Source of the DNA: Reclinomonas americana ATCC 50394
Lineage: Eukaryota
Direction: 5' to 3'
DNA: 32,907 nucleotides
Assembly (NCBI GenBank): GCA_048213135.1
Contig: PS015490.1
Span: 63,228-96,134 of the forward strand
Shown: piece by piece, positions 610 through 31,900 of the stretch
How the letters are laid out: each line of letters begins with the position of its first letter
Position numbering within the stretch: position 1 is the stretch's first letter
The notes under the pieces: generated by a model
The model's database searches: none
Told to the model about the DNA's origin: nothing
The model's input: only the letters and a program-made list of their open reading frames with translations
Program-made: the position numbers and the translations under genes

Positions 610-662
<53 letters not shown>

Positions 663-1001
663 CGTGTGTGTGAGTGTGTGTGAGCACGCAACATACAAGG
701 CACCGACAGCAAAGGCCAAGAGCGTGGTCTGATTGCGCGTGAAAAAGTACTTGCCACCCGGCTTGATGTTCCACGCATCGCGCTCCGACAGCTGCACAAA
801 GCCTCGCTCAATCAACTGCCGACGCGCCTTCTCTACAAAGACAACACACAGAGAGAGAGAGTGTGTCAGATGTCGCTGTCATGTCGCACAGAGAGGCACA
901 CACACGCGCGCGCGCAAACCGACTGCGTGGAACGGCGACACGGAGTAGTTGACAAAGTCAAGGAAGCGGTTGGCCAGCGCACGCGCGCTCTCCGTCACCA
1001 T
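314..1001 (-). CDS. DNPEP: Aspartyl aminopeptidase (peptidase M18), 5' part; the rest lies beyond the window start. Exons 1001-920, 832-693, 517-~461, 387-314
   Basis: Spliced translation: MVTESARALANRFLDFVNYSVSPFHAV|EKARRQLIERGFVQLSERDAWNIKPGGKYFFTRNQTTLLAFAVGALY|KPGNGFQVVAAHTDSPDFK|LKPNTKVTGAGFLQVGVQAYGGGLW. It has the M18 hallmarks SPFHAV, AHTDSP (metal ligand His) and YGGGLW. All introns are GT-AG and phase-consistent. Confidence 0.93.
604..682. repeat. (GA)n/(GT)n microsatellite in aminopeptidase intron 2
   Basis: Direct inspection. It produces the spurious ERERER/SLSLSL ORFs. Confidence 0.9.
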
Positions 1002-1064
1002 GATATGACAAAGAAAGCAAACACCAAAGTGCAAGAAGAGGACAGACTCGCTAATTGACTGACA

Positions 1065-3610
1065 ATGAGCGATGACGAGGGCGGTGGCGTCACACCACCT
1101 TCCGCCGCCACTGGCATCATTCGTCCCTCTGTGCAACCGCCTCCGCCTCCGCCGCTTCCTCCGCCGGCATTGAAGCGCACGGGCACGCAGAAACGACGCA
1201 AGAAGAAGCGCAGCAGTGATGAGGCGGCAGCGCCTGCGCGTCGCTCGCATCATCATCAGAGCAGTAAGCCTCTTGCGCATCGATCGTTGCAGTTGAGCGA
1301 GCCTGCGTCGTCATTGTCGGCATCATCGTCGTCGGGATTTCGCTCAGTGGATCGTGTGCTGTTGATGCCGCTCGGCGATGGAGCGATTGCGCGCGGAGGT
1401 CTCGTGCGACTGGAGGAGAACTACCTCGCGCCTATCACGCCGGGTATCATTACGCCGCGACAGCAGGTGGACACTGCTGCTGGTGCTGCTGCTGGTGGCG
1501 CTGGTGGTGCTGGTGGGAGTGGAGTTGGCGGAGGGACATCACGGCAGTCGTTGATTAGTATGAGTCGCGGGAGTGCAGTGTCGGATGAGGACTCGGATGT
1601 GGTGTATGCGCCGCCGTCGGCGGGGAGAGGTGGGGCGGGGCGCGGCAGCAGTGGGCGGTTGGATGAGGCGGCGTTGTTGGCTCTGGCGGGCGGTGGTGAC
1701 GATGTGGGTACCACGGATCTGCACTCGTCCAGTGCGTTTCCGTCGTATCACGGCGTGGTCGGGCCGGGATCGTCTCGTGGTGGGTCGGAGGTGGCACCGG
1801 CGTTGTTGTTGGCCGATGGCGGCACGCTGCTGGAGTTTGAGAGGCGGAGATCGGTCAAGGGCGTGTTTTACGTGCTCTTTTGCCTGCTCCTCCATTGTGC
1901 GTCTCTCTCCACGGCGACCCCCTCCCATGCATCGCGAACTCACTCTTGTGTCTGTGTGTTTTCTCCCGCGCAGTGGTGGAGCAGGTCGTGCATCTGTTCA
2001 CCACCATTACGCTGCATAGCAATCGCGGCATTCTCGACAGCTACTTCATCTCGTCGCTGGTGTTCCTGATGCTGCCGCACGCCATTCTCTTTCTTGGTGG
2101 CCTCTTCGGCCGCGGTCTCATTGACGACGAGACGCCGTCGTCACGCAATGCGGTCGTCGACCGCATCATGTTCAGCTCGTCGTCCACGTACGGACGTGGG
2201 GGTTACGGCAGCATTTCGGCCTCGAGAAGTCACAGCAGGCAGCATTTGGTGAGTGCGCTTGTTTGGTGTGCTTTGTGTGCGCATTCCTCACTACGCAATG
2301 CATCTTCGCTTCTCAAGGCTGGCATGTGGGACTCGCAATCCGGCCTCGAATCGAACTGGTGGGCCACGGGTCCAAGTCGCCCGCGGCACATGGTCGCCCG
2401 TGTGTGGCAGTACATCGTCACGCGACTTCTCATTCCACTCACCGGCATGGCGTACTCGTCGCGCTGTGTGGTGCTCATGACGTGCCAGTCGAGTCGATAC
2501 ACGGTCGAGCTCAACATTCCCATGCTGGCGCGCTTCAAACTCGTGCACGCCTTCTTTGGCCTCGCACCGCAGTTCATCCTCATTGTTTCGTCGGCGTCCG
2601 TCCACTGTTTACTAGCTGCTGCTCACCAGCGTTCCACTGCTCCAGATCTTCCACGTGATCCAGAACGAGATGCTCAATCTGGAATTCACTCTCTGCATCG
2701 TCGTGTGCAGCGTGGGTTCGGCCATTGCCTTTGCGTCGGCCGACGTGGTGCTGCAATCGGACGACTCGTTTGTGCGCCTGCTGTCACAGGAAAGGGTGCT
2801 GACCACCGGTTCGTTGCTTGCTGGCGCAGAGCGGCGAATCATCTCCCCCCGTCTTCTCATGTGCCATTCACAGTCATGTCGTTCTTGCACATTGGATGCG
2901 CTCTCGGCGAGTTTTCGCTCCGTCTCGCCCTCGTGTTCAAAGTCAAGGACGTCACGGTGGCCATGGTGTCGCTGCTGGTCGACACGGCGCTCTTTTTCGT
3001 GGCGCAAGCGGCCGTGCGAATACGGCGCGCCCAATGTCGATCCATCTGCTATCATGCGTGAGTGCTGCTTGCTTTCTCATTCCCTTCCGCGCATCCATGC
3101 TGATCCTCTGCTTGTCTCACAGTGCCGCCTCGTTGGTGGGCGCCGTGCTGTCGCATCTCACGCACCCGTACACGCCACACATGTTGTCGGGCATTCCATT
3201 GCGAGCCGACGAACAGCTGTGCCTCCTTGGTGCGATAATTGACATGCCCTTTTCGTGCCTCCTCCCACTGTTGGCTGACTCATTTGCTTGTTTTCTGCGC
3301 AGGTGGCAGATTAGGCGTGTACCTACTGCGTATCGGCACCGTGGTGCTGGCCTTCCGACTGTACTGGCAGCTCGGGTTCGCCAACTTTACGTTTTTGGTC
3401 GGCCTCATGGCCGTCTTCTTTGGTTGCAGTGCGGTGCTGCAAGTAATAGACTGGATCCGTGCACTGCGGCGGCGGCGTTCTCGTCGCGCTGCGTCGGCTG
3501 GCACATTAGGCAGCACCGCAAGTGGTGGCGGAAGCTCGTCCAATCGCATGCTGCAATTGGTTCCAGACGAGGCGGCGCCACTCACGCCACGAGCGATAAC
3601 AGACTATTAA
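1065..3610 (+). CDS. XK-related (Xkr/XK family) polytopic membrane protein with a long disordered N-terminus. Exons ~1065-1896, 1974-2248, 2318-2584, 2646-2767, 2830-3057, 3123-3228, 3303-3610
   Basis: After splicing, segments align in order with XK family motifs: VFYVLFCLLLHLVEQVVHLFTTITLHSNRG..YFISSLVFLMLPHAILF (TM1-2); RFKLVHAFFGLAPQFILIIFHVI (compare LrLlEaFlEsaPQliLQ); CIVVCSVGSAIAFASAD; FLHIGCALGEFSLRLALVF (compare wrllei.sRvlal.lF). Further hydrophobic helices follow. Introns are phase-consistent GT-AG. Confidence 0.7.
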
Positions 3611-3836
3611 ATTATTCGTGCATGTGTAACAACACTCTTCTTCATGTTCTTCATTCGTCTAAACTCACAAACAAGCAAAACACACAAAACCCATACGGGA
3701 TTCTACAATCAAAAACGATTAACACGCACTGAGGCGTGCAACAAGGGGGGGAAAACATACACAAATCAAAAAAATGGAAACTCACACACAGAGCAACTAG
3801 GGAGGCTCGACCGCGCACTCCGGATCACACACCACA

Positions 3837-6800: not shown

Positions 6801-9723
6801 TCAGCTTGCGGCTCAGGGGCCGGCAGCTCAGGCTCAGGCTCCGGCTCCGGAATCAGCACCGCCTTCAGGGGCATCGAGTGCACCGGCGGCGCCGCCGGTC
6901 GCATCCGCGGCGACACTGGGCTGACGGCGCCGTTCTGCGGCACAATCGGCTTCATGGAGGTCACCACGAGGCGCGACGGAGGGGCGACGACCGGCTTTGC
7001 CGGCGCAGGCGACGACGACGACGACGACGACTCGGCAGCCGTGGCATGCAACGGAACTGGCGAGGCCGCAGACCGCGCGGCGGCACTCTGCGACATGGAG
7101 CCCATCATGCGTGCGAGCTCCGAGCTCGCCTGCGCCAAGGGCTTGGCGGAGACCTGTTGCATGCGCTCCAACTCGGTCGACGGCTTCATCGGTGGATTGT
7201 CGACCTCCTTGGCGACAGCAGCAGCAGCAGCAGCAGCAGGGGATGTTGACTTTTCCGTGGCGGCAGTCGGCGTGGTGACGGCGGCGGCGGCGGCGGACGG
7301 ATAGCCAACAACAGCAGCAGCAACCACAGTCGGTGAAGCCAAGGGCGAAGAGGCGAGCGAGCTGCTCGTCTTGAGGGCCGGCTTGACGGGGGACAGCACA
7401 GCGCTGGTGCCGACGCTGCCGTTGCTCGGGGTTGGGGGGCCGGTGGGTGTCGACGGAGACGACGACGCCACATCGTCGTCAAGCGCAAACGTGACCGAGC
7501 GGTCGGTGCGGCTCTGCTTTGAGCGCGAGGAGCGCGAGGTCGGCGTTCCATTGGCCGGCACAAAGCCAGGCTCCGTCACCAGCATGTTGTAGTAGGTGTT
7601 GAGCAGGGCCTCCGGGACGTGACCGCCGTTGCGCAGCTGCATCTCGATAATCTACAAAAGAGTGGTGAGGAGGATGGAATGAAAAAGAGCACCACTTCAA
7701 ATCACCAACACACCTCGATAAACGACGATGCCGAGGTGCGTCGCTGACTGCGGCGAGACGACGGCGAGTGATGTGGGGGCGGGACGGGGCGACGCTGGTC
7801 CGAGCCGGTGCGTTGGTGCGCGCGGAACGGACCCTGCTGCTGCATGTGGTTTTGTGCTGCAGAGTGACGGAGAGGGAGAAAGAGAGTGAGTGGAAAAAGC
7901 AAAAATAAACGTGGCAAATTATGGTGCGCCACTCACCATCTGCACTGCGCATGCCGCCATTGGGGCGCGCCATGCCAGACGAGCGGCTGGGGCTCTGAGA
8001 GCGCGACGAAAGTGGCAGGTGCGGCGCACCATTGCCATTACCAATGCCACCGCGAGTCGCCTGGCGACCGCGCGCCATGGACGGCGAATCGGTGCGTTCC
8101 TCACGCGCCGCCGCCGCCGTCGACGACGACGACACCGAGGTGGGCGTCATGGAGCGCGTGGGAGTCGACGAACGCTGACGCGACAGGATTGGCGTCGACG
8201 AACGGCGAACCAAGCAGCTGGCGCTGGGGCGCGGGCTGACCTTGCCCGACAGGTTCGCCGAGGCGGCCGCATTGGAGGCGGCGCCATTGTCGGCCCGGTT
8301 GCCGCCACTGGCAGCACCCGAGCCGCTGGCAACCGAGCTGCTGCAGGTGCTGCCAGTGGTGGTGTTGTTGGCAATGGCCGCCTGGCGGTTACGCGAGGCG
8401 GGGCTCACGCTGCGAGAGCCACTGCCATTGCTGCGAGACTGGGAGCCGGTGCTGCGGCCACCCGGACTCTGCGAACGCCCCGTGGAGCGAGCCGGTCGCG
8501 GAGCGCTGACCGGACGACGCGGCGACACACTCGTCGACGGACTCTGCGCGGCGGCAGTGACATCGCCACGGCCGAGTGGCGACTTGGAGCGCGTGCGCTG
8601 TGTGTGCGTTCATGCAAGTCAGACGAGGGGGAGTAGAGGGGAAAGGGAGAGCAACAAACGAGTGCGTGCGCAACTTGACCCGACAGACGCATAATGCCAG
8701 TGGGCGGCGCCGCTGGTGTCATGGACAGCGGCAACACCAGTGGCGGCACCGTGACCGGCACCGGCACGGCCGCGCGACCCACCACCGTCACTGTGGCCAC
8801 CACCGGCACAGCGACCATACCTCCCGTTGGAGTGGCAGGCGACGTCACCAGCGCAGCAGCAGCTGCCGTGGTGGTGGTGGTCGTTGTCGTGGTCGGCGAC
8901 GACACGCTCACTCCCGACGAGCCCACCGACGCGCCACCCGACGGCGACTGCGGCGACGACAGAAGCGATGACGCACGTGGCGTCAACGAAGAGCGTCGCG
9001 AAGGCACTCCCTTGAGCGGCTTGCGTTGCACAGCTGCCACAGCCGCAGCCGCGGCCGCAGCCACAGCCGCCGCACTGGCCGTGTTGCCTTGCACGACAGT
9101 CACACCCGTGTTAAACGACAAGGGCGAGGTGGCGCGCGCCTGGCCTGGCGACGAGGGGAACAGCGCAGACTGCGCGCGGTTGAGTGGCGAGGGAGGCTGG
9201 GTGACTGTGGGCGTGGTCGATGAGGTCGACGAGGTGCGTGTGATGGTGGTGGGAACCACGGTGGCGCCCAGTGATCGCCATGGATGGTGGTTGGGCGATG
9301 AGGGTGAGGGCGACGAGGAGGAGAGTTGAAGAGGCAGAGGTCGATGGTTGTCACTGTGCATCAGGGGAACGGGATCGAGAAGAGAGTGAGCGGTTGTGAT
9401 CTCACTTTCGCCACACAAAGTCGAGACAAGTCACTTCTCTCGATGATAACAACGCGCGTGTGTGTGTGCGCGCGTGTGCTTCTCTCTGTGTGGCTGTGTG
9501 ACTGACTGACCTCGATGAGCATAGAGAGCGTGTGTGTGTGTTGTGTGTGTGACTTGACACCAAACTCATTTTCCCATCAAAGTGCGGTTATGTACCTCTT
9601 TCACACTCACTCACTCAGACACACACAGTTCCCTGCTCTGTTGCGTCGCACACACATACCAACACACAAAGACTGCACGACTACTGCGCGTGTGCGTGTC
9701 AAAGGATTGTGAACGTACCTCAT
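3837..9723 (-). CDS. Large (~1,700 aa) low-complexity protein: Ser/Pro/Thr/Ala-rich N-half, QPKPKQE repeats, Glu/Arg-rich helical C-half; function unknown. Exons (9723-9719), 9353 or 9361-8675, 8597-7937, 7856-7714, 7651-5503, 5433-5092, 5020-3837; the 5' end may extend further upstream
   Basis: Long minus-strand ORFs (8405-9418, 7479-8528, 5045-7642, 3837-5078) are joined by phase-compatible GT-AG introns with pyrimidine tracts. Exon sum from ATG 9361 is 5166 nt (1,721 aa plus stop). No globular domain recognised. Confidence 0.8.
6350..6546 (-). repeat. Coding tandem repeat encoding (Q/E)QPKPKQE-like units
   Basis: Translation EQPKPQPEKEQPKPKQEQPKPKEQPKPKQEQPAQPKPKQEQPKQEPEQPKPKQEQPKQEPKQEQP; repeated ggctgctcctgctt(g/c)gg on the + strand. 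Confidence 0.9.
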
Positions 9724-10453: not shown

Positions 10454-12105
10454 ATGTCTCAGTTGCTTGTGGTCACTCATTTCCATGCAGTTGTGTTTGT
10501 GTTGCTGTTGATGTTGTTGTCGTTGTCACGCACGCCTTGCGGATCCTGTCAATCCCGCAGCGCCGGCCGGATTTTGCATCATTTTTCCTCTCTCCTCCAC
10601 ACACACGCACACACGCACCGCCCTCTGACATGTGGCAATGCTCTGCTTCCATCCCCAGCACCGACTACATCGAAGCGATGTGCGTGTCGGATGTCGTCTT
10701 CGTGCCTGCTTCACATCGCCGGGTGAGAATGTATGCATTTTTCCGCTCTCTCTCCATCTCTCTCCTCGCTCGCAGCACTCACTCGACTGTGGCAACACAG
10801 GCGCAGCGCGTCGCGTACGCGACAGCAGCATGTCGCATCCACGTGTTCTCGGTGCTCTTCGACCCACTGGAGATCGACATCGCGCGCACGCTCGTCATCA
10901 ATCTTGACAAGTGGGACGGAAACACGATCTATTCCCTGGCCTTCTCCCCCGTCAACCCCGACGTGCTCATTGTCGAAAGAGAAGAGATGAGCTACAGCTT
11001 CGATACGCCGTACGAGTACAGGAGGGTGACGGCGTGGAGACTGCCGCCGTTCACATTCGCTTCACCGCCAGCGGAGAAAGCGGGCTGCTTCTGCACCTCC
11101 AGCTGGGAGAAGCACATCGACAACAGCTGGCGTGTCCACATCAACGGACGATCGAGCAGCAATTGCGTTGTAGTTGACGAAGCAGACCTCGCGTCGTTCA
11201 CCGCGACTATCGTGGGCCGTGACGACAGCGGCGGAGAAGAGAGACGTATTTTTGTGTCGTCGACGCACACGATACACGGGAAGTCGACACAAGTGGACCG
11301 GATCCAGCCGGCGTGGCTGTCGGTGACTACCGGCGAAATGCAAGTATTGGGGCAGCTACGAGCCGAGGGAGATGGTCGCGCCTTGCGCCAGAACGTGGCG
11401 ATGTCACCCAGTGGAGCGCTACTGGCGTCACATGCACTCAGTCCTTCCAGTGATTGCACCGCTCAGCTCTCCTTGCGGGCCGCCGATGATGGCTCTCTGC
11501 AGAGGACATTCGACGTGCATTCCGACACGCCGTGCGCCGGCATGAACATCGAATTCTCGCATTGCGGGCGGTCGTTGTTGCTGCGCGGATTGTGTGGAGG
11601 TGCGCCGTGAACGATGGATCCCTCTCCGCGTTGCCTACCGTCTCACAGTTGTGTTGATGTCCCCCTCCGTCCATGACTAGGTGCGCCCGGCACCGCCGTG
11701 CGCCACAGTTATCGCTACGTGAACATGTTGCTCGACTTGGAGAGCGGCGAGAGCCATCGCCTGGAGGGCGAAGACAGATTTGCTACGTTTCTTCACGACA
11801 ACCGTGTCGTGCTCATCAACTCGAACTCCGTCGCAATCACGTGTACGATTCTGTCAGGTGTGGTGGCACTTGCTTCACCTCTCTCCGGCTGCCTGATCCA
11901 TGTACTGATCGCTCGTGTCGGCAAAGGGCCGTGGTGTGAAATCCGATGGCTGGCGCTGGAGGTGGACGCGGTTCGGCATGCGCTGGCCTGCGTGAACGCA
12001 ATTGAATGCGACGATGGTGATGACGGCGAGCCGCTTCCGTCGTTTGTGCTGCGCAACTTTCTCGTGGAGGATTGGCAGGTTGAGCTGCAGCGAGCGCAAA
12101 TGTAA
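10454..12105 (+). CDS. WD40/YVTN-like beta-propeller protein. Exons ~10454-10489, 10561-10722, 10801-11599, 11681-12105 with a probable extra intron at ~11859-11926; alternative start at 10630
   Basis: Blade-like motifs IYSLAFSPVNPDVLIV, VAMSPSGALLAS..QLSLRAADDGSLQRTF, IEFSHCGRSLLL and LLDLESGESHRL. Intron G|GTGCGC..actag|GT joins ORFs 10537-11610 and 11698-12105. Confidence 0.6.
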
Positions 12106-16908: not shown

Positions 16909-16990
16909 GCAGATTGAAAGAGGAGGACAGTGGCAAAATGTTACTCTCTGTCGTTTAATTCCACTAGGTTTCTTGTTTGTACGTGCTGCA

Positions 16991-19900
16991 TTACCCGCCT
17001 TGACTGTGCAGTACAGCGAGACTGGCGACAGTGATGGCTGTGCCGCCCATCTTCACCATGAGGTTGGCCGGAGCAAAGGTTCGTCGACGTTCGCCGACGG
17101 TCGCGTTGATCCACTTTGGGAACACGAGTACGCCCAGGAATGTGGCCGTCCTGTGCACGTGCGTGTTGTTAGTGCGGGTGGAGGCCACCAAAGGCGTGAG
17201 ATGTAGGAGAGCGGTACCATGAGAAGAGGATGCGAACGAGAGTCATTTCCAGGTACACCTGTTGAGGAAGTGAGCAGCAGGCGCAGCAAGCGGTGCGTGA
17301 GGGGGAAGAAGACGAACGAGGGAGATGTCGTAGGTGATGGCCAGATAGAAAAGAACAATGGCTCGTCCGTTAAGCAGGGCGCTGCGAGAGGCGGCGCAAG
17401 TTAAGATCAGTTGCCTTCCCTAAATTCCACACGCTCACTCTCCGGCACTCTGTTCCCTCTTCCCCCACAGTGCCGACACTCTCCAACCACATCCTATTCG
17501 CCAGTCCATTCCTTTCTCTCTCACTCTGCAGCTCTCTCTTGCCCGCTCACTCTCCACATCGCCGACGATTTTCAACAATACCCTCTCTGCGACTCACTCC
17601 GTCTCTGTGCACTCCGCAAAACTTCTGTCGCTCTTAATGCCTTGCAGTGCCTCCTCCGCGTCGTCTCTCTCTTCTTTCTCTCTCATTCACTCTCTCTCTC
17701 TCTCTCTCTCTCCTTTCCATAAGCACTCAGCGAGACATGTCTGCTTCATTGAAGAGAATTCTCTTTTCTTCTCATGGGCTTCTTGCTGATCTCTCTCGCT
17801 CTCTTGATCTCTCAGATTTCCTTTCCCTCCTTCTCTCTCTCTCTCTGCCCCGCTCCATATCCTCCTCGCAGCACGTCCTTTCCCTGTCCCTCAAGTCATT
17901 CTCATCCACGTCTCTCATCTGTCTGTGCTGTTCCCTTCCCCGTCCGCCCCTCCCCCAAACCTCCCGCCCCCATTCTCCTTCATCCCCGAACCCGCATCCT
18001 CTCCTTTCTCAATCATTCTCGTCAGAACCTGTCTGCAGCATCCTGCGTCTGTGTTAGTTATCTTTCTCTCTCTCTCCATATCCTCTCCGCCGCACTTCCT
18101 TTCCCAACCTTTGTCGTCTGCATCCCTTTCCCCCCTCTCCTATCCTCCCTTCCCCTCCTTTCTTCTCCTTTCCCCCCTTCCCCCCTCTCCTATCCTCCCT
18201 TTCCCTCTATCTCTTCCCCCTCCTTCCCCCTCCCCCCTCCTCCCCCCCTCACCGATAAACAAACAACTGCACATACGCCGCTTCCCTCAGACCCTGCTTG
18301 AACGCCTGCCACATGGTCTGCCCGTGATCTTGCGGGCGATTGCAATTGTTGCGGCAAAACGGCGTCAAGTCGGTGAGGAACAGCACCGGGAACATGTACA
18401 AGGGCAGCAGCACTTGATCCTGTATTCATCCAGGCCGTGAGCGACAACCCTTCCTCCTTCTCCCTCTTTCCCCCCTCTTTCTCACCAGCGCCAAGAAGGA
18501 CCACTCGTTCTGCAGCCACTCGTTGTTGACGTAGTACTGCTCCACCCACCACAGCGCCGACACCACCGCAATGTCGATGAACAGGAAGAGAATCCACAGC
18601 GCCTTCACAATGTGACGCTGCAGGCGTGACATGCGCCGTAACCGAGCGTCGGCGCGGGAGAGGCTCTTGCGATCGGGCTCGGGGGTCTCCAGCAGCGGCT
18701 CTTGCAGCGCAGTGCTGTGCTGACTTGACGTGCGCTCCATGCTGCAGAGGAGATTTTTTGAGTGCTCTGCGGGCATCTACGCCATGTCGAGGGTGCACGC
18801 AACGTGTCCAGCTCGCGCGACGTGGCCTCGTCGTCGCTGGCGTCCTCGTTCTCCGTCGCCAGCACCACGGTCGAGTCGAGGAACCCGGTGTCAGAGTCAT
18901 CGAGTTTCTGCGTCGAAGAGTCGTGCGCGGTCTTCTCATCGCTCACATTACTCCGCGGCGTCGATGGTCTCGACGCCTGCCGCAAGCAGCGCGGCTGCCA
19001 CTTGATCCACGAGTCGGGCAGCGGCATGAGGAAGAGCACCGTGCCAATGGAGCCGAGAATGTACACCAACGCCGACGCCACTTGCCCATCGTCCAAGCCT
19101 GCACGTGTGCGCAAAATGAGCTGCGGCTACGACAAAGCACAGAGCCCCTCCTCGAGCACCCATCGCGCACCAAACAGCGTCGTGACGGGTCGCACAAGGA
19201 ACGACGAGAAGAGGCCCGACAGCACAATGACCACCAAGCCGAGCGGCTCACGGAAGAGAATCGCTGCGCGTGCGGGAAAGATGAATTGAGTGCGCCGTGA
19301 ACGAGCGCGATGAGCATGCAGGCCAACAACGAGGCACCTTCCGCAAAGTAGTACGCAATGTTGAGCAGTCCATTGAGCTGCAGAGACAGAGAGAGTCAAC
19401 GATGTGCTCTGATGGTCAACATGCACTTGAGAAGAAGAGGGCGCACCAGCAGTCCCGGATGATAGTATAATGACTCAAACATGTACCAGGGACCCTGTCG
19501 CGGGCATTCAACCACCACACAACCAGCACTTCCCGCAGGCGCACATGGCTTCGTCCCATTGTTGGCAGAGTTGGCATAGCAGGTGGCCTGATCATGCGTT
19601 GAAATGAGAGATGTGAGAGAGAGAGAGAGAAAGAGTGAGAGTGCGTAACTGTGATGGAGTTAATGTTGACTGTGTTGGCGACGCTCAGTGGGAAGGCGAA
19701 CTGGAGAATGCCAAAGATCACGAGCACCTGTGTGTGTGTGTGTGTGTGCGAGAAGATCAGCTGTTGCATGCCTCTCTGTGTGTGAGTGTGTGTGCACGCA
19801 CTTGCAGACATGAGACGAGACACATGGGCACAAGAAAGCGTCGTTTGCTTCCGCCATGATAGACGCGACAGCAGCGTTGTGCGAGTGAGTCTCCCAGTGA

Positions 19901-20025: not shown

Positions 20026-20155
20026 GTTGCCGGAGGTGAGGAAGACTCCGTTGATCGACAGCCGGATTGGTTGTAACAACACAAGCAGCAACAAATTCAT
20101 TATACGTTTTCTTTTTAACACGACAGCCCACGCATCCGCAGTGCGACCGACAAGA

Positions 20156-22509
20156 TCACACGTTGCGGCTGAGAGTGCTCCTTCTAAAGTTTGGTGGCAC
20201 TCCGCTGCCGCCCGGTGGCGAGGAGCTGCGGCCGAGATGCAAGAGGTTTTGCGCTGCGCGCATGCCCTGTTCTCGTGCGTAGCGCTGTCGCTGGTTCTGC
20301 GGCCGGCTGCCCATGTAGCGAGTGTACAGGAAGAATAGCACGACGCAGACGACCATTAGCAGCAGCCAGGTGGATGTCATGAGGCCGAGGAATTGTCCAT
20401 CAGCTGAAGACGCTGCGCGGATGAGAAGTGAGTCGCGAAGGAACAGGCGACGTCTTGCGCTTCTCCCCTCGCCACGACGCAACAGTACTCCAACCCGTCC
20501 ATATCGGTGCGTGGTCTGAACTCGTGAGCCGCCGTGATTTTTGTCGGAGCTGGAGGACTGACCACCGGCAACGGTATCTGCTGGTGTGCCGGCAGCGACG
20601 TCGGCTTCTTCCACGACACCCACCGGATTGATCCATCTGCCGCGAAGGAAAAAAGAGAGTGTGAGCACCTTCCAAGTCATCAGGCTGGCGACAAGGAAAG
20701 GCGGTGCACGCACCCGAGCCGCCGAGGTAGCTTTGCTGATTACGACCGGTGCGTGGCGCCACCGGTGCGAATCGCGCCACCGGACACCGAGCTTGCGGTG
20801 TCCACGACTTGCGATACAACTCAAAGTTGGCCGGTCGTGGCAAGGTCAGCGAAGCGTCCGAAGGAGATCTGCGACCGCGTGAGTGATTAGAGGAGAGAGA
20901 ATGAGCGAAAGGGGGGGGGGGGGACGCAACAGTGTGTGCTTGCTGGCAGGCAGTCGGGCGTCGCCCGCCGGCAGATCCGCCGGCACCACAAACGGATGAT
21001 TGAGCAGCGGAACGCGATCCAGCAGCGGACCCAGTTGCCCGGTGGTGGTGTATCTGCACCAAAAGATGATGAGAAGAAAGACGTCGTGCGCCACGTCGAC
21101 GATGACGCAACGTAATCATGTGCTCAAAGAGCCAAAAGCATGGCATGGAGAGATGGTGATCGTCGACGCAGCTCGAGTCGCCAAATACCGCCACACGACC
21201 GGGGTTCTTGGCCAAGTCGAGCCGCCTGTCTCGCCGACAAAACAATGAGTGACAATGTCAGGCACACAAACATCTCTTTCTCGTGAGTCGTTCTACACGC
21301 ACCGCACATCGTACAGGCCGAGGATGGCGGCGTTGGTGACTGCGCGAACACCCTCCAACAGCAACTGACTAGAGTGGCTGATTTGGGTTTGCAACAGGCG
21401 ACCACCGGGTGGGAAGCGCACAATGTGAGTGCCGGATGCAATCTGTCGAGCGAGTGAGTGTGACTCCATCGAGAGTGTCATTTTGCCTCCCACACACACA
21501 CACCTTACTCGTGTGCTCGCCCAGAGTAAACGACCCATCCACTACGGTGTTGCCGAAGGCAATTCCCCAACTCATCAGCAGCTCGTTCAGACCGGGCACA
21601 TGCGACCCGCCCGTCAGGCAGTCCCACTGCGATTTGGTGTTGTCGTCGAAGAATTGCAGCTTCTGCACCACCCGATTGTCGAACCAGTCGGCCATCACCA
21701 GCAGCGACAGGCCACCGTGATTGACATCCTGAACGGCGCGTAAGGAGATCGATACCGACACACCGAGAGAGCACGTCAAAGACAGACACACGCACCCGCG
21801 ACAGCTTCTCAATCTCCGACGGGTGGAAATCGGTCTCCGTGTCCACCAAGATCAGCGTGCTATACAAACTGGCGTTGAAGCAGGTGAAATCGGTCTCCAG
21901 AATCTCCACAAACAGCGGCAGTGGCTCCGGCTCGTCTGGCAGTGTGATCCGAGTACGCAGAAGCGAGGCCAGCAGGGAGCGGAAGTTGGTGTGCAGGTGG
22001 TCGCCGTGCGAGTCGAGAATGTTGTCGGTGACCTGTGACGGGTCGCGGGGGTCAGCAAGGGTGGATTAACCAACAAGAGGAACAAAGACTCAAGAGGACA
22101 AAGTAGTCCAGGCTGTCACTCTACCGATGGCAAGATGCTGCCCCTATCAGCAATTCTGCTCACATCGGTGACGCGAGCCAACAAGCGACACACCACTCTC
22201 GCGTACACTCTCTTTCACAAAAAATAGATATGAAACCAACAGCACCACAGTCGATCACAAAAACTATTTGACTCACTCTTGTCCTCTCTCCCCTCTCTCG
22301 CACAAGTGCAACATCAGCAGCAGCACTGTCTATCGTAACTACTGATTGACTATCAGTCCTTTTCTCTCCCCCTTCCACTCTCTCTCTCTCTCACACACAA
22401 GCAAATCAGCAACACCGCTGTCGATCGTAACAACAGACAATCCCTCTCATGTGAGCGTGCACGTGCAGAAACATCACCATAGCGGTAATCTGCATAGACG
22501 AACTCTCTG

Positions 22510-22545
<36 letters not shown>

Positions 22546-25500
22546 TGTGCAAGTTCAAAACAATGAAAGGGAGAACAAAACTCACGACACGCAGTCGAGC
22601 AGATCCTTCTGTCTCCTCCCCTTTTCCCTCCTCCCCTTCTCCCTTTCCCCATTCTCCCCTCATCTCCCCCCTCCAACCCCTTTCCCCCCGACCCCTCCGA
22701 ACCTCCAATCGGTCCCGCGGAATGTACGCCGGCGGATACTGCAGATTGTGATACTGGGAGAACAACACTCGCTGCTCGCGTCGCGGCGGCGGCACAATAG
22801 TCACGGCAATTGGCACGCGCACAGTGTACACCACCACCTCGTCCCATAGTGGTTCACCGGCCGGCGGCGGCGGCGACGGCGGCTGCGGTGCGCGGGAGGC
22901 ACCAGAGCCAACCTTTTTGTTGGTCCATGAGCCTCTCGATTCGCCTTCCATCTCTGCGGCACGAATGGTGTGAGCAACGTGGAAAGAAATAGAATCGCCT
23001 TGCAAAGGCAACAAATACACCTGCCGACTCTTGCCGCCGCATCTGCGCACGCCACGGTCAGCATTGAAAAAAAGACCACTCGCTTCACACAACAAACGCA
23101 CCGATCCCTCCTCCTCCGTCCCGCCGTCCACATCGTCACCGCGCAGCAGTCCGTGCAGCTCACGGTCGCCGATTCGCTCGGCCGCCAGCGCGTCCAGACC
23201 AGGATCGGTCAGCGGCGAGGTGGAGTTATTGTGCGGATCGATGGACGCGGAGCCCAGATGCGGTGACGGAGTGGACAGCGTCTGTCGTCTGCCGACACCG
23301 ACATCGCCAGGCGAGGTGCGCGGCACATGATTGAGAATGGGAATTTCGATTTCGCCAAACACGTCGCCCGAGTATCTATCGACACGAAAAAATTAGCAAA
23401 CGCACATCAAAGATGACCGGCAGAGCACAGACACGCAACTGCAGGCCCCAACGTGTGACAGTCATGTGTACACCGAGTGCGCCAGAGTACGGCCACAAGA
23501 GCGAGTCGCCCGAAAAGGTGACATCCAGCAGGCGCGGATTGCTGCCCTCTGGCAAGTCGCCATTCTGCATCATCGTCTCGACCTGACCTGGATCGGCCAC
23601 TGGATTGAGCTGCACGTAGCGCGGAGTGCCGATGCGACTCGTCACATCCAACGGGTTCGTCACCGTGATGTTCACCGTCAGAGGCATCTGCGTGACCAAA
23701 AAATCAGGAACCTGTCACCTCATTATGCTCGCTCTGCAGACAAGTACCTTGGAGAAATACAGCGGCTGCGCACACAGTGGATACCAGTGGTCACACATGT
23801 CGTGACCGCGGGCATCGGTGCCGGAGCGCAGATCAAGGGCGGCCGGATATGCAGCCGGCATGCGAACACGCGGGATGGAGGCTGTTGGCGGTGGCGGCGA
23901 TGATGACGAGGAGGCAGCAGGCTGGCAATGCGACGCGCAAGTTAACCCAACAGCCACATACCCCAAGAAGCTCAACGAGAGCGCACACACCTGGCGAACG
24001 CTGTCAATAACATCGGCAGCGAGATCCATGGCCCCTCGCAAATCCAGCAAGCCGGCACCCTGCTCGAATGCGTTGTAGGCACGGCTATCCAGTGGCGTGG
24101 CGGAGGCTTGCAGCAGGTGGCGGATGAGTGCGGTGTTGATGAGACGCGATTTGCCCATGGAGGCACCGTCCACTGGAATCGCCGCGGCCTCGGGTGCGTA
24201 CTGCGCGGGCGGGTGTCATGAGCAGAAGAAGAGGAAGCATAGTACTTTCCATCCACCTCCACACACCTTTTTCAACGCCGACACCAGGAGCGCCACAGCA
24301 CCAGTGACCACTGGCGCCGCCACTGAAGTGCCCGACAATTCGCGGCACTGCGTCACCGCCCCGAATTCGTGCGACATGGAGTACAGATTGACACTTGGGG
24401 CGAGGATATCGGGTTTCAGGCGACCATACGTGCCCGGGGCATTCGCTGCCGCCCCCTCACAGTGAGTATATCACACATCCGGACAAAAGAAAAGAGAGAG
24501 AGACACCTACGCAGACAGACCTGATCGCTGATGATGATGCAACTCCCACGTGGTCATGCCGCGCGAGGAGAAGCGCGCGACGCTCGGGGGCGATGTTGTC
24601 GTGTCGGCACCACCAACGCCAATCACGTCGGGTTGATCGCCAGGATTGGCCAGCGTGCCGTACATGGGCCCGTCGTTGCCAATGGCAGAGATGACGATCT
24701 TGCCCTGCGCGGTGACTTCGCGTACCTTGTCGATGAATGGTCGATCCGAGTAGTCGGGTCCACCGATGCTCAAGTTGAGCACGTCAAGGTCGCTAAACAT
24801 GGCGTAGTTGAAGGCGTCCAGGAACCACGACGTGTACGACACCTGGTCGCGCGTAAACACCTTGAACACCACAATCTCGGCTTCGGGCGCCAACCCCGGA
24901 CAGCGCGCGTCGTTGCCGGCCACCACACCGGCCACAAACGAGCCGTGACCCACATTATCGTCGCCAGTCGTCTCCGTGGTCCAGTTGGTGATCTCCACCA
25001 GCTTGTCAAGACCGGGGTGGTTGTGCGAGAGGCCGGTATCAAAAATGCCCACTCGCACTCCCTGGCCCTTCACCGGCAAGCTCCACACCGTCGATGCACC
25101 GAGATACTCGGCCACATTCACCATGCGGCCACCAACCGACAGCAGAGTGCGTCGGTTGGCGGGCGACGGCACAGGACCAGTGACTTTCATGTGACGGCGG
25201 CCCGGATGACGACGCCCCGTCAACTTTTCGTCTCCCGCTGGTGTCGTGGTGTTCGTGGTGCCATCAGCGGGCTTGTCAGCGGACAGCAGATGCCGCAACG
25301 TGCGCTGAGCCGAAACATCGCGCACAGCACCGAGACCGCGCACGGTACGGCGAAACTGTGCATGTGCGCCTGTCGTGCCCACCACCTGCACGGAAGAAAA
25401 AACAGCTTAAGGAACCACCATCATCATTCCGTCGCAGGAATATTCTCTCTTTCTCTTCTCACCGCCACCACGGCAAAATCCGACGGGTATCGTTCAGTGG

Positions 25501-26303
25501 CGAGGTTATGTCGCTCCACCACTCTCCACGAGTAGCGCGGTGGCGCCACATCCCTCACCAACGGCACATGCGACATGCACGGACACTGCGCACGCGACGC
25601 CCGTGCATGCCCCCGACGCACGCGCGGACACCGAGCTGTCGCCACCCACGGTCCCGGCAGCGACTGCTGCAGGTACCGGTGGTGCTTCTCCAGCGGCTGA
25701 TACTCGCGGAACTGCACAATGTACTCGTCTGCGCACACAGTCAGTCATCGCATTGTCGACGAGGAGTAACAACAGTCGAACCTTCCGTGGTCTCCACGAC
25801 TGTAGTCGCCTGTACACCACACAGCGCAAGGTGAGGTGACTGGCAGTGACACAGGAGACAGAGGGGAGTGCGCGCGCAACTGCATGTGCTGCCGACGCCT
25901 TTGTCAAGTGCGACGCCACCAGTGGACCCATCAACGACGCCATGCGCAACTGATCATTGCTGTCGCCCGCCGGCAGCGACAATATCCACACCGCGAGCAC
26001 GCACGCGGTCACGGTGCACACGAGCGGAGTGAGCGACATTCGTCGACGAACGCGCGTGCTCGCCGACTCTGCGAACCCACAGAACGCCTCATATGCCGCT
26101 GCCGCAGATGTGGCATTGCGTGGGGCGCTGTGATGAGGGTTCGTGTCGTTTGTGGTGATGGTGTTGTGCTCCTCCTCTGGTTCATTGTCAGAGGATGAGC
26201 TCGACGAAAGTGGATTGTTGTTGATCAGCTTGCGTTTGCGCGCGGCTTCTGGTGACGAGGTGGTGTCATCACCGCCACCACCACCGCCGAGATCCATGAG
26301 CAT
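20156..26303 (-). CDS. MBTPS1: Membrane-bound transcription factor site-1 protease (S1P/SKI-1, subtilase S8), about 18 exons; alternative start ATG at 26039
   Basis: Catalytic motifs: VGIFDTGL (Asp ~25039), [12 protein letters not shown] (His ~24946), [36 protein letters not shown] (Ser ~24325). S1P-specific motifs: [96 protein letters not shown]. Prodomain RxLL sites RHLL and RTLL. C-terminal [18 protein letters not shown]. Confidence 0.96.
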
Positions 26304-26671
26304 GGAGAAGAGGTTGCGCGCGCGCGTGGGTGGAGTGTTATTTTACAACAGGACGTACGCGAAGTTGCTTGCCACGCGTCTCGGCGAAGTCGGCATTGGC
26401 GAGCAGAGCGTGTGCGTATGTGGCGGTGCTGCCATGCGCGATTATTCTGCGTGCGTGATTGCGGTGACAGAGCTTGTGCGCATGGAGGAGAACACAGTAC
26501 AGAATAAAAGAACGATCGGCGTTCGTACGAAGGCACTCTTCCACGCTGATCACCTCCACTTCTCTGCCCCTCACACCTCCACCTCCAACCACACGCACCA
26601 GACAGCGCGGTGCCGCACAAAGCGCAACGTCGCAGCGTGTCCTGCACTCACATTCCCTCCCCAATACAATC

Positions 26672-27372
26672 ATGTCGAGCGACGACAGCGACAGCGACAG
26701 CGACCACAGACACCCCACTGCCGCCGCACTTGCGGAGTTGACCTCGCGACTGGATGATGTGGAGAGACACATTGACGAGTTTGTGTCCATGTCGGCCATG
26801 GCGAGAGGCGCTGGAGGAGCGCCACAGCCGGGTGTCAAGGGAGGCGACGATGAGGAGCAATTGTCGGCACTGGAGCGCGCCAAGTTGCACGTGTCGTTGG
26901 CGTACGCAGTCAACTCGCTGTACTTTAGTTGCGTCTGTGATGTGAGTCTCGAGTGACTCTTGTGTGCGCTTACTCATTGTGTGACACATACACACACACA
27001 GCGTATCTGAAGACGCAAGGTGTGGCGCCGCAAGACCACCCTGTGGCGCAGGAACTCGATCGTGTCAAGTCCTATGTGAAGAAAGTCAAGGGTCTGCATT
27101 GAGGCGATTGTGTTCCCTTTGTCGTGCTCGCATGCTCATTGTGTGATTACGCAGACGCTGTTGCGCTTGACAAGGGCCCCTCGATGCGCGTCGATGTGCC
27201 GGCTGCTGGTCGCCACATTCGACAGGGCATCACCGGCGCGGCGACCAAGTTCCGCCAGCAAAAGGAGCAAAAGGAGCAGCAGCAGCCGGCGTCGTCGTCG
27301 GTGGATGGCACTCATCGGTCGACGCCGGCTCCGCGCATGCCGCACCTGGCCTTCCGGAAGGAGTTCAAATAA
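26672..27372 (+). CDS. C1D: C1D/Rrp47 (Sas10/C1D family) nuclear exosome cofactor. Exons 26672-26927, 27002-27091, 27155-27372
   Basis: LSALERAKLHVSLAYAVNSLYFT|YLKTQGVAPQDHPVAQELDRVKSYVKKVK|DAVALDKGPSMRVDVPAAGRHIRQGI matches the C1D/Rrp47 consensus, including the C-terminal vD..AA.R.I motif. Confidence 0.92.
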
Positions 27373-27426
27373 GCAGTGTTGTTGTTGTTGTTAACTTGTG
27401 CGCAATAGATGATGTGTTTATGATGG

Positions 27427-28425
27427 TCACTCGGGTCGCATGCGGCAAAAGAAACTCTGTGCGTTGCTGCGTTCGAGCAGGTCGGCTAGTAGTAGGGTCT
27501 GCAGGGCGTCTTGAATGGCACTGGCGAGTTCGCTGATCGATGCAAGGAGGTGAGTGACAGACTGTCTGTGCCTTGCAAGAGAGGACGCCGTCTTTTTTCT
27601 CAAATCACCTGCTGTCTTGATCGCCAGTGGCTGCCTGCTCGATCCACTCCATGTCGCCATCCATGGCCTCCAGCGGGTGCACAGTGAGCGAGAAACACTG
27701 GCAGTGAACACAATCTCGCCTTCTCAGCCTCGGAGATAGGCAACACAGCTGGCGAAGTGCCTGTTGCGACGCTTTCCTCATTCTCCTCGTCCACCACCTG
27801 TCACGCCGGCTGCTGTGGTGAATCTGCGTCACCAACGATATTTATGCGAGGCTGGCGGCGATTCCTCTTTCGGCGGTCTCTGTCAGCACCGTGCGACGGA
27901 ATGGAGTGGCACTCGACGACGACGGTGGCGCCTGTTCAACACAGTCAGGCAGGGCAAGGAAAGGGAGCACTCGCGGCATGACTTCTGACCGAACTCGTCT
28001 TCATCGAGCCCGGCGGCGTGAGAGACTTACCGCTGCGTCACGCCAATGCACAAGTGGCACCGCAAAGGTCGCCTTCCGAGGGCGTTGCAGAATGCCTGAA
28101 TAGGAGTTGATGCTCTGCATGCAACACCCGCGCGCAGCGGTTTCACGCAACACCCGCGCGCAGCGGTTTCACCGGTACAGCATTCTGTGCGTCGACATGC
28201 AGGTGGAGTGCCAGCTGCCAACGCGTTGATCTCGCGCGCCGCTGCGCTTGCAATTGCGCGCGGCACGGCCGGCAGCGGAGATTCGCCGCCGGCAGGCCGT
28301 GCGGCCACTGACACGGGGCGATGGCGCTCCAGTGGACGGCAGCGCACCACTCGGAGTCCATTCGGCGGTGTGAGTGCTGGGGGGACAACCATGCCCAGGC
28401 TGTTTTGCAGCGGCGCGGACTTCAT
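27427..28425 (-). CDS. Small hypothetical protein, about 5-6 exons, structure uncertain
   Basis: Tentative chain: MKSAPLQNSLG...ECCT|GILQRPRKATFAVPLVHWRDAA|...VVDEENEESVATGTSPAVLPISEAEK..MDGDMEWIEQAATGDQDS|SELASAIQDALQTLLLADLLERSNAQSFFCRMRPE*. There is a clear GTAAGT donor at ~28030. No family recognised. Confidence 0.4.
28121..28172. repeat. Perfect 26-bp tandem duplication, GCAACACCCGCGCGCAGCGGTTTCAC x2
   Basis: 28121-28146 is identical to 28147-28172. Confidence 0.95.
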
Positions 28426-28953
28426 CGGCGACCACCCACCGAGCCCGCGAGCCCGCCGGCGCAGAGCTCGGCGCGGCGCTGGTGAATGTGTCAATTACCA
28501 AGTTTCTTTGAGCGTGAGAGGGTCGGATGGGTCAGAGGCGGAGGAGAGTGAACACTTTCAGCGTTACGGCAATTCCCGTTTTGGTATGGGACTTTGAGCT
28601 ATCCGAAAGGAGTTTATTTTTATACATCGTATCAAGCGTGCGAGTAGCGTACTCGCATCTTGCACCGCACAGCTGCGACAAAACCACGTGCAAAATAGTA
28701 CACACCATTGTGAGACAGGTGAGGGAGTGCATCGATGTGATGAGGAGATCACACTGCGCTGCGAGCACACACTCTTTTCGCACGGCGCAGCTCTCTATAG
28801 TGTATTGTTCCGACTTCTTGTTTCTCATTCACTTGCAGCGTGTGTGCGTGTTCTTGTCGTGCATGCACGCCTTCACACTGATGAACATGATCATGCCACA
28901 TACTCAACACGCAAGTGTGCACGCAGGCGCAGAGTGTACACACCAGATAATCA

Positions 28954-31900
28954 ATGGTGGCCGCCGATAACAAGTGGACTGTGTCTGTGTCGCTAGCGCT
29001 GCTGGTGCTGGTGGTGTTTGCGATGTCGCTGCACGCGACTGCGTCGGCGGCTGTCTGTTGCGTGGTTTGGGGGTGAGAAGTGTGGTCGCCAAAAGAAGCA
29101 TCGTACGAGCAATCGCCACCAAGTATCGTGTGCTTTTCCCTTCTAGAGTATAGATTCATGTTAATAAGAGTAAGAGAGAGCGGGAGAAGTGTAGAAAGAG
29201 GGGAGTGAGAGAGTGAGAGAGTGAGAGAGAAAACGTTTGTGGTAAGTCTCATGCCTTATCATAGTTCCTGTATTCCATGTTGATTTGTTGTGAAGACAGT
29301 ATACGCGCGCGTGTAGTGACAACCTCTAAATCGTTTGCCTGGTGATTTCGCAGCCACCTCGTCTGCCAACGTTAACACTGCCGCCACCGCTGCAGCTCGG
29401 GGACAGAAAAGCGTTCATACCCAAGGCTCTCTGATTGGCGGCGTCTATGGTGAGTTGTTCTGCTCTGATCATATGGCTCATTACAGCATTCACTGTGTGC
29501 GCTCTGCTGGTGCATGCAGGTGCCGATTGCACCGCCGACCCTCACGAGTCGAAACGTATCTGGTGGTCAGTCGCCTCGAACGATGACGGCAGCAAGTTGG
29601 TGGCCGTGGTCGAATTCGGTCGCATCTACACCTCCACCGACTCTGGCGCGACGTGGACGCCTCGTGAGTCCGATCGGTACTGGGTCAGTGTGGCCTCTAG
29701 CACCGATGGCAGCAAGCTGGTGGCCGCCGTCTTCTGTGGCGGGCAGCTATACACCTCGGTCGACTCCGGGGCAACGTGGACTCCACACGCTACAGTGCAA
29801 GCGTGGTCGGCGGTGGCCTCCAGCGCCGACGGCTCGAAGCTGGTGGCCGCGGCCTACAGCGACTTCATCTACACCTCCACCGATTCCGGCGAGACATGGA
29901 CGGCACACGATTCAGTTCGACTGTGGATAGCTGTGGCCTCCAGTGCCGATGGCACCAAATTGGTGGCCGCTGTGCGCGACGGTCAGATCTACACTTCGGC
30001 CAACGCCGGCGCGACGTGGATGGCACGAGACACGAATCGACCGTGGGTGGCAGTGGCGTCGAGCAGTGATGGCGTGAAGCTTGTGGCGGTGGCTCTTAGC
30101 GGCCAGATTTACACGTCCGCCGACTCTGGTGCGACGTGGACGGCCCGCGAATCGGCACGTCTGTGGCGTTCGGTGGCCTCAAATAGCGACGGAACGCGGC
30201 TGGTGGCTGTTGCCGGTCACGACAAGCTGTACACGTCGAGTGACTCTGGCGCTACCTGGACACCTCGCGACTCGAACCGCAACTGGTTTGCCGTGGCCTC
30301 CAACGCCGATGGTACGAAGGTGGTGGGCGCTGAGTACGACGGTCGCATCTACATCTTCGACCTCAGCGCATGTGCGCCGTGCTCGGGCTATGGTACGCTC
30401 AACCCGAGCGACAACACTTGTCAGTGCACCATGGGCGACTGTCCGGCTGGCTCGTACCAGTCAGCTGCCTGCTCATCTACTGCCGATCGGGTGTGCACTC
30501 TTTGTTCCACTGGCACCTGTCCGGCTGGCTCGTACCAATCAGCTGCCTGCTCATCTACTGCCAATCGGGTGTGCACTCTTTGTTCCACTGGCAGCTGTCC
30601 GGCTGGCTCGTACCAGTCGGCCGCTTGCTCCTCAACAGCAGATCGTGTTTGCCGGTCGCTGACTGTGTGCGGTGTCGGCGAGGTTGAGTTGCAGGCCCCG
30701 ACGGCCACCACCGATCGAATATGGTGCGTATCACGTGATCACTGCTCATCCATGTTCTTGGTCTTTCTTGCTCGAGTTGGTCTTGACCATTTTCCTTTCC
30801 TCTCTTTATATGCACGATTATTATATTAGTTCTGCTCCGTTTGGCACTGTGTCTGGCACAGTGGTGGACTTGGTCAACGGTCTTCCAGTTGCGAACGTGG
30901 TGGTTTCCATTGAGGGCGTGGAACCGCAGATGACCGGTGCCGCCGGCGCGTTCGTAATCAGTAACGTGCCGGTGGCAGAGAGCACGGTGGTGCGTGCATC
31001 GTCGGTCGGGTACATCGATGCATTCCGCACCGTGTCGGTGGTGGCGGGTACTATCACGACGACTGAAATTCGCTTGCCGACGGCCGGTACGCCCTTTGCC
31101 ATCGACTCCAGTGGCGGCACTCTGGCGAGTAGTGACGGCACGTCGAGCAGCACGCAAGTCATCGTCTCGATGCCGGCATTCGCATTTGTTGATTCGGCCA
31201 CGGGCGAGCCGCTTACCGACCTCGACACCAACCCAGTGACGATTGAGTTCTCGGACTTCACCTTCTCCTCGTCGAGCGACGTGTTGGCGCTTCCTGGCCT
31301 ACTGATCGGTCGAACGGTCAACAACGACGTGGCACCGCTTGAGAGCATTGGCTTCTTTGTGGCAACCATCTCTCCTCGAAACGACGGCATTGTTCCCCAG
31401 CTGGATCCGGCGAAGGGTGTCATCATCTCCATCCCCCAGCCACCGTCGCTGATTGGTGTGGAGGCAATCTCGTTGTGGTATTTTGCTACCGATCTCGGCA
31501 TCTGGGTGGAGGACGGCGTGGCTGAGTTGCAAGCAGGAGGTGCTGGGGTCCAGAGTGCTTATGTCGGAAGGTGTGTGTGTGTGAGAGTGAGAGAGACAGT
31601 GTGTGCGTGTGAGTGTGTGAGTGTGTGAGTGTGTGTGTGAGTGTGCGTGTGTGCGTGCGAAGAGCGAGGAACCTCATGAGCTCACTCTGCGACTGTTGAC
31701 GCACAGCGTGTATCACTTTTCGTATTGGAACTTTGCCCGCGTGTTCGTGCCAGCCTACATCACTGGGCTTGTGCTGTCGAGTAATGGGTTACCGCTTGCT
31801 GGTTCCACTGTCTACTACTCTGGTGTCAGCTACGTTGGCACCATTTCTGTGTTGACTTCTGATGACGGCTTGTTCAAATTGCTTGTCAAGGGCGGTGGCG

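Follow-up and report, generated by a model that had tools for sequence, protein, structure and literature searches.

The window analysed here is a stretch of 32,907 nucleotides of Reclinomonas americana ATCC 50394 (G000:C482:63228-96134, contig PS015490.1, of a 108-Mb assembly), and this report concerns a set of its introns whose 5' splice site, or donor, reads GTTGCG. The initial annotation had placed ten such donors in the window and proposed that they form a routine class, used where the exon does not end in G, that resembles the donor G/GTGCGT (a slash marks the cut) moved one base into the intron; flexible pairing of U1 and U6 small nuclear RNAs (snRNAs), or variant snRNAs, were offered as explanations. 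All ten hexamers lie at the coordinates and on the strands claimed, and the exon ends before them are also as claimed, with G in 0 of 10. The window contains 30 copies of GTTGCG, both strands together, so the majority are not donors. Introns were called with a self-trained gene finder that gave every GT the same score, so that donors were chosen by coding potential and acceptors alone (donor-blind), and with a stricter model that used trained donors. The donor-blind finder called 7 of the 10 sites, and the trained-donor model called all 10 among 95 window introns, which include some false calls. We defined class II donors by T at +3, G at +6 and a base other than G at +5 (approximately GTTNCG or GTTGNG), and class I donors as G/GURNGU-like. 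The ten GTTGCG introns, followed by three further class II introns that were predicted in the window, are listed with their evidence.

518..692, minus strand: GTTGCGT...CAG intron, phase 0, aspartyl aminopeptidase (M18) gene; Pfam M18 profile contiguous over the junction, positions 59 and 60
8598..8674, minus strand: GTTGCGC...CAG intron, phase 0, large low-complexity gene; frame continuity only
18742..18803, minus strand: phase 2, membrane-protein gene; sensible protein only with the cut before G
20413..20483, minus strand: phase 1, S1P (MBTPS1) gene; frame continuity
20869..20930, minus strand: phase 2, S1P gene; frame continuity
21054..21111, minus strand: phase 2, S1P gene; homolog hidden Markov model (HMM), and sensible protein only with the cut before G
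23376..23439, minus strand: phase 2, S1P gene; frame continuity, strict model only
25810..25880, minus strand: GTTGCGC donor, phase 0, first intron of the S1P gene; sensible protein only with the cut before G
26928..27001, plus strand: phase 1, C1D gene; Pfam PF04000 profile contiguous, positions 58 and 60 on either side of the split codon
29057..29353, plus strand: phase 1, after a signal-peptide-like exon, probably of a secreted protein; sensible protein only with the cut before G
19588..19649, minus strand: GTTACGC donor; predicted by donor-blind and strict models
2585..2645, plus strand: GTTTCGT donor; predicted by trained models only
10490..10560, plus strand: GTTGTGT donor; predicted by trained models only

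The conserved protein that had been said to anchor the aminopeptidase and C1D junctions was recovered by the two Pfam profiles. The EamA label given earlier to the gene at 18803 was not confirmed, as its two flanking exons had no Pfam match. Enumeration of junctions against an HMM from 60 homologs placed the S1P 21111 junction at the top of those ending in AG (35.9 bits versus 30.9 for the runner-up) and did not discriminate at S1P 23439. The S1P intron starting at 20483 has two in-frame acceptors, 20413 and 20404, 9 nt apart.

The class is abundant beyond the window. Donor-blind runs covered 322 kb first and then 687 kb from eight contigs, and GTTGCG was the commonest donor hexamer in both (101 of 1221 and 237 of 2668); in the larger run the last exon base was A, C, G and T in 100, 58, 9 and 70 cases, respectively, while GTGCGT donors followed G in 97 of 148. 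Unsupervised clustering of the donor-blind calls returned caa/GTTGCGT as a separate component. When cuts were allowed at -1, 0 and +1 of any dinucleotide, 7, 87 and 9 of 295 GTTGCG sites followed by C or T were used, compared with 4, 64 and 2 of 295 for the positive control GGTGCG followed by C or T, and at most 3 were chosen at any offset for seven look-alike motifs. We then counted high-confidence introns, those with flanking exons of at least 45 nt, a coding sequence of at least 600 nt and a branch motif, excluding the bacterial-like first 30 kb of contig C14. Class II made up 195 of 851 of these in the donor-blind set and 275 of 987 in the trained set (23-28%), and GTTGCG alone 145 of 851 and 210 of 987; the class is thus routine, as proposed, while the proposed frequency of one in seven is slightly low. 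The claim that the exon never ends in G holds for the ten window sites and nearly so across the eight contigs, where G stands at -1 of 9 of 195 class II donors, and the common donors were rightly said to follow mostly G (391 of 462 class I donors in the high-confidence donor-blind set). In the trained set, class II accounted for 261 of the 347 introns whose preceding exon ends in a base other than G and for 16 of 643 after G, figures that are partly circular, unlike the donor-blind ones. Tabulation by the -1 base across these contigs left GTTGCG as the commonest donor and dependent on a non-G exon end. Class I itself shows an unusually strong dependence on G at -1 (85-89%), and its +4 base is most often C in all contigs although U6 is canonical.

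Class II occurred in all eight contigs, and 128 of 155 genes with at least five introns mixed both classes. Class II introns end GT...YAG by frame and protein conservation, have lengths similar to class I and, as in class I, carry a U2-type branch point, with a CTSAC-type motif at a distance of 20 nt from the 3' end. A comparison of 654 class I with 266 GTTGCG introns showed no difference at the branch point and 3' site beyond 1 of 10 positions at p 0.009. No conservation extends beyond +7. At +5, 169 of 195 class II donors have C, so that the pairing of G+5 with the ACAGA box of U6 in the normal register is lacking. Pfam searches on 72 exon pairs, chosen from 152 candidate class II pairs, found the same family on both exons in the predicted frames in 10, exactly contiguous in 7, with 62 pairs carrying no information. 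The GTTGCG donors are a real and abundant second donor class.

Retrieval of the U1 and U6 genes and modelling of their pairing in both registers, a check that the initial annotation had proposed, yielded a U1 paralog whose 5' arm fits these donors, in line with its variant-snRNA option. Rfam, and also a pattern blind to the 5' arm, located three U1 loci in the genome:

C343:5715-5887: canonical U1, canonical arm
C429:9347-9500 and C479:4310-4463: variant U1, two haplotypes of one locus

C343 matches the window in composition (r 0.97). Some other loci are likewise present as both haplotypes on separate contigs of the assembly, which also contains contigs of bacterial-like composition such as C1. 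Few elements of splicing vary as little as the 5' arm of U1, and within it C8 in particular. In the variant the arm reads AUACGUAACUU in place of canonical ACUUACC, with the changes U5G, C8A and G11U, and it is complementary to AA/GUUACGUAU. The variant matches its canonical paralog in 101 of 175 columns and retains the 70K loop, the U1A loop, helix H, an Sm-like site and the terminal stem-loop; it matches RF00003 over the full model length (E 2e-14, 64 bits). Its haplotypes show 0 differences in 154 nt, with flanks 93.7-96.9% identical. Upstream of the variant, at -66, stands CCCACAA, which is also found before U2 (-62), U6 (-69/-70), U11 (-70) and a U6atac-like gene (-72); the shared snRNA element is CC(C)AYAA at -62 to -72, and GRGTSAC lies at -34 to -39 before U1 and U2. 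In position, the shared element is like the upstream element of Dictyostelium as the available text of PMC7919456 describes it. The variant U1 gene thus appears functional and constrained, and its RNA would be expressed and assembled into a small nuclear ribonucleoprotein (snRNP). A metagenome scan of relatives for the variant arm gave no sequence with two of three U1 features among the at least 120 matches listed. A search of the genome for U1C (PF06220) had no match; its gene is probably split by introns.

Duplex energies separated the two U1s. Median energies for class II donors were -8.5 kcal/mol with the variant and -1.6 kcal/mol with canonical U1, and those for class I were -3.7 and -6.4 kcal/mol, respectively; of the two, the variant was the better partner for 189 of 195 class II donors but for only 72 of 462 class I donors. 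GUUGCGU forms six Watson-Crick pairs and one wobble with the variant arm. The wobble falls at a U1 position where class I wobbles too, the donor base being G in 165 of 195 class II and 280 of 462 class I donors, and the GTTACGC donor at 19649 has A+4, which pairs with U6 of the variant arm. Opposite U1 position 5, C stands in 169 of 195 class II and 178 of 462 class I donors (87% versus 39%); this agrees with G5 of the variant and is not expected from a shifted canonical U1. Among class II donors, A stands at -1 in 49 of the 112 whose intron part is perfect and in 52 of the 83 with an imperfect one, a compensatory pattern (p 0.0096).

We propose that the two common donor classes are read by two U1 paralogs. 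Class I would be recognized through canonical U1 pairing, in which the exon-final G is needed for C9 of U1. Class II (H/GUUGCGU, about a quarter of introns) would be read by the paralog with U5G, C8A and G11U, the arm lying on +1 to +7 as C9-G+1, A8-U+2, A7-U+3, a U6.G+4 wobble, G5-C+5, C4-G+6 and A3-U+7. Since this helix would lie wholly inside the intron, no exonic G would be required, and U10 of the arm would favour A at -1. The cut would fall before G, with an ordinary U2-type branch point and 3' site, and catalysis may be carried out either by major U6 with a one-base bulge or by the divergent U6atac-like RNA in the normal register. We consider it probable that the second donor class is read by its own U1 paralog, which presupposes that the gene is expressed, that its RNA enters an snRNP and that the predicted pairing forms.

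Several observations weigh against this proposal. Neither the variant U1 (64 bits) nor the canonical paralog (63.7) reaches the Rfam cut-off of 69.5. Across the genome, the pair of promoter motifs shows no enrichment (86 matches versus 98 in the control), so that only the position of the element counts as an argument; 30 of the 86 matches were read and contained no new snRNA. At the partner of U1 position 11 the A:C ratio is weak (p 0.03 donor-blind, 0.21 trained), and A at -1 and -2 could reflect loop 1 of U5. The rarity of G at -1 in class II (9 of 195 versus a 33% background) does not follow from the proposal, since U10.G could wobble. All junctions were deduced from frame and protein conservation, and the counts rest on a purpose-written gene finder, about 40% of whose donor-blind calls fell into a noise component.

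If the true introns were UUGCGU...YAGN, with both cuts one base downstream, class II exons would end in G as those of class I do and C8A would compensate U+1; this model is frame-equivalent to the favoured cut, and C8A is located precisely where canonical U1 reads +1. The base after the AG changes with codon phase as it would in coding sequence (G in 29 of 62, 7 of 69 and 23 of 64; p 0.001), and the downstream cuts would gain a TAG stop in three high-confidence introns. Six junctions had informative residues (three in UBA6/1 and one each in HSP70, DLST and GH47), 2 of them with G at -1. In UBA6/1 the residues favour the cut before G (L 32 versus R 0, K 25 versus E 0 and L 49 versus V 0 of 60), although a further junction, poorly aligned, leans towards the downstream cut (T 0 versus A 3 of 60); HSP70 (I/V 50 versus S 0 of 50), DLST (M 71 versus V 1 of 150) and GH47 (RPE in both solved chains shown) likewise favour it. 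At nine junctions conserved residues did not separate the two models, and four of the five S1P junctions encode the same residue under both, the fifth being unalignable. Frame tests and conserved proteins thus place the predicted class II cut before G, and the downstream model is very improbable.

Could canonical U1 alone read class II in a +1 shifted register, the variant being incidental or silent? Class II mirrors class I moved by one at U1 positions 3, 6 and 10, and the available text of PMC4856993 describes the shifted register as proven in human cells. However, two mismatches, C8.U+2 and U5.C+5, would be left; the ten window sites have duplex energies of -3.3 to +0.5 with canonical U1 versus -8.2 to -11.3 with the variant; the excess of C+5 over its class I counterpart would go without a cause; and the variant gene appears constrained. 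We therefore regard this explanation, and with it the flexible pairing of one canonical U1 that the initial annotation had offered, as unlikely. Class II could also have another origin, either as U12-type introns that were transformed in the manner of Physarum or as an introner family derived recently from a transposon. C+5 is common to minor donors, no exonic G is required, the U6atac-like RNA matches, and the raw phases are flatter (95/94/86 for class II versus 300/208/95 for class I). Yet the phases become equal after correction for the exon-end base (0.43/0.33/0.24 versus 0.45/0.31/0.24), with no bias away from phase 0. The donor is not RTATCCTT, with which it has only C+5 in common, and the branch point is not TCCTTRAC but U2-type as in class I; nothing is conserved past +7, lengths are similar, and a canonical U11 and true minor introns coexist with class II. 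We judge this origin quite unlikely.

We now turn from U1 to the RNAs that may act later. Only one type of major U6 was found in the genome, with canonical ACAGAGA, and no variant of it. On +5 to +8 of class II donors it forms a mean of 0.34 Watson-Crick pairs in the normal register; a shift by one raises this to 2.13 and requires a bulge. The accessible part of PMC11162779 reports a shifted U6 register for a human STAT3 donor. Rfam (RF00619) also matched a divergent U6atac-like gene:

G000:C392:96657-96788 and C1225:15887-16016: U6atac-like gene, two haplotypes

The two copies score 37.8 and 34.9 bits (cut-off 33) and differ at 2 of 120 nt. The gene is colinear with the consensus, with a short 5' end, intact catalytic GAGA and AGC and a 3' stem-loop; it has a compensatory change in the 5' stem, the promoter element at -72 and a T-run end. 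Its box is ACCGA (A12 C13 C14 G15 A16) instead of AAGGA and thus includes G14C. The U6atac register is counted back from the AGC triad. In this register G15 faces +5 and C14 faces +6, where class II has C and G, and the RNA forms a mean of 2.16 Watson-Crick pairs on +5 to +8. It is mismatched at +6 and +7 of ATATCCTT minor donors, and its pairing with the two U2 types is -7.0 and -8.7, compared with -6.0 for U6.

These properties suggest that class II might be spliced by a hybrid of variant U1, U2 and a re-programmed U6atac, a reading compatible with our proposal. In its favour, the U6atac-like box reads C+5 and G+6 without any shift, where the major U6, present in a single canonical type, does not, and it fits textbook minor donors poorly. 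Against it, this is the only U6atac found although canonical U11 and AT-AC introns exist, so that it may be a diverged RNA of the minor spliceosome. Moreover, G+7 would be expected opposite C13 but is avoided (2 of 195 class II donors versus G+6 in 32 of 462 class I donors, p 0.0008), the shifted major U6 pairs about equally well, and no U12 or U4atac partner was found. We hold the hybrid to be a serious possibility that falls somewhat short of an even chance. Either a canonical U6atac was missed by the assembly or the search, or one RNA serves both intron kinds, or the match is due to chance. Class II may be unshifted at the catalytic step if the U6atac-like RNA is used. A third, hybrid pathway for about a quarter of introns, in which a re-programmed U1 paralog would choose H/GUUGCGU donors, U2 would read an ordinary branch point and a re-programmed G14C U6atac would act in the normal register, beside the canonical major spliceosome and the AT-AC minor one, is a tentative idea that we lean against.

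The genome, which is rich in introns, contains canonical U1, U2, U4, U6 and U11 besides the variants. Two clearly different U2 types are present (C14; C409 and C371; L060:1501-1699, L061:1499-1717 and L062:1499-1716); both have the GUAGUA branch-binding sequence, and they differ in the helix I bulge and the 3' half. U11 has a canonical 5' end (L271:108-232, L272:111-241), which indicates that the minor spliceosome is present. The first 100 of 544 matches include at least five loci with textbook ATATCCTT...CCTTRAC...AC introns:

G000:C4:140472-140543, minus strand: AT-AC intron, ATATCCTT donor, CCTTRAC branch point
G000:C5:89957-90035, minus strand: AT-AC intron, same donor and branch point
G000:C5:242333-242413, minus strand: AT-AC intron, same donor and branch point
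G000:C15:142273-142345, minus strand: AT-AC intron, same donor and branch point
G000:C16:28433-28505, minus strand: AT-AC intron, same donor and branch point

U5 was not found in the genome by Rfam or two loop patterns; U12 was not found, nor was U4atac by Rfam. A pattern complementary to the U6atac-like RNA gave 49 matches versus 23 in the control. Three sets of candidates came up: from that pattern, a pair that by eye resembled U4atac (G000:C280:87853-87910, plus strand, and C282:44645-44702, minus strand; 5 of 58 bases differ), which is unconfirmed and could be chance or coding; an exact-box match to canonical U6atac at C56/C491, which is not an snRNA; and four extra places read for a U2-like partner with GAYCR, none of them an snRNA.

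The comparisons that follow draw on the accessible portions of the papers cited. In human +1 shifted 5' splice sites (PMC4856993, PMC11162779), the U1 helix lies one base into the intron and the cut is at GU, as in class II; those sites are rare and read by ordinary U1 with a mismatch at C8, and human non-canonical U1 registers together come to about 1.5% (PMC11162779), whereas here about a quarter of introns are concerned and a paralog removes the mismatches. Co-evolved U1 arms are described in Entamoeba (ACAAAC) and Mastigamoeba balamuthi (ACGUAC), and Physarum is said to have a standard and a modified U1 (Roy and Bowser, bioRxiv 10.1101/2022.06.08.495308). In the two former, as here, a U1 arm is fitted to an atypical donor, and U5G is the Mastigamoeba change; their changes face +3 and +4 in the normal register, while here C8 is changed, the register is moved and the classes are split by the exon-final base. 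Fritillaria borealis (PMC13326754) also duplicated spliceosome parts for a second intron class, but the duplicated part is U2AF and its two U1s have identical 5' ends, a dedicated U1 being named as the route not taken. The AG//GU and //GURAG classes (PMC11732430) resemble ours in that one leans on the exon end and the other on intron pairing; unlike ours, they share one register and one snRNA set. Physarum's transformed minor introns (bioRxiv 10.1101/2020.10.12.336362) likewise form an abundant second class whose snRNA has co-evolved; in that case the changes affected U12 and the branch point, and phases are still minor-like, whereas here the donor and U1 changed and the branch point is U2-type. 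Hybrid major/minor spliceosomes have been proposed for Giardia lamblia (PMC4829280) and for species without U4atac (PMC11347168). If the hybrid reading holds, the likeness to Giardia would be a U6atac-like RNA that acts together with U2-like and U1 components; Giardia has one snRNA set and a handful of introns, in contrast to the canonical set plus variants in the intron-rich genome analysed here. The literature searched, mostly outside subscription journals and without supplements, contained no account of GTTGCG donors, of a U1 paralog with C8 changed or of a U6atac with G14C; the supplements of the Entamoeba and Physarum preprints may contain Physarum U1 variants.

If our proposal is true, a natural paralog rewired at C8 would serve about a quarter of introns, and a second donor code would be evolvable inside the major pathway by snRNA duplication, a route that the 2026 tunicate paper treats as available yet unused. 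The system would provide a natural test of what sets the cut site: U1, U5, U6 or proteins. Should the U6atac-like RNA be involved, major and minor parts would mix in vivo for abundant introns. The two U1s and the altered U6atac-like RNA hint at a second splicing pathway for common introns. In practice, many genes of this lineage would be annotated wrongly by gene finders whose training relied on G+5 donors.

Other observations concern the organism and the assembly. The end of the eukaryotic scaffold C14 (G000:C14:1-30000, L083-L085) carries long genes of bacterial appearance that lack introns (biotin carboxylases, patatin, phage lysozyme and molybdopterin oxidoreductase) and is probably a chimera or contamination. 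S1P reached at most 64% and HSP70 87% identity to an unnamed protein, and no close named protein turned up. A prismane (hybrid-cluster protein) gene carries a class II intron (L070:9273-9641) and may point to low-oxygen metabolism. The organism may be a flagellate, judging by its KAP3, CEP76-like and DZIP-like domains.

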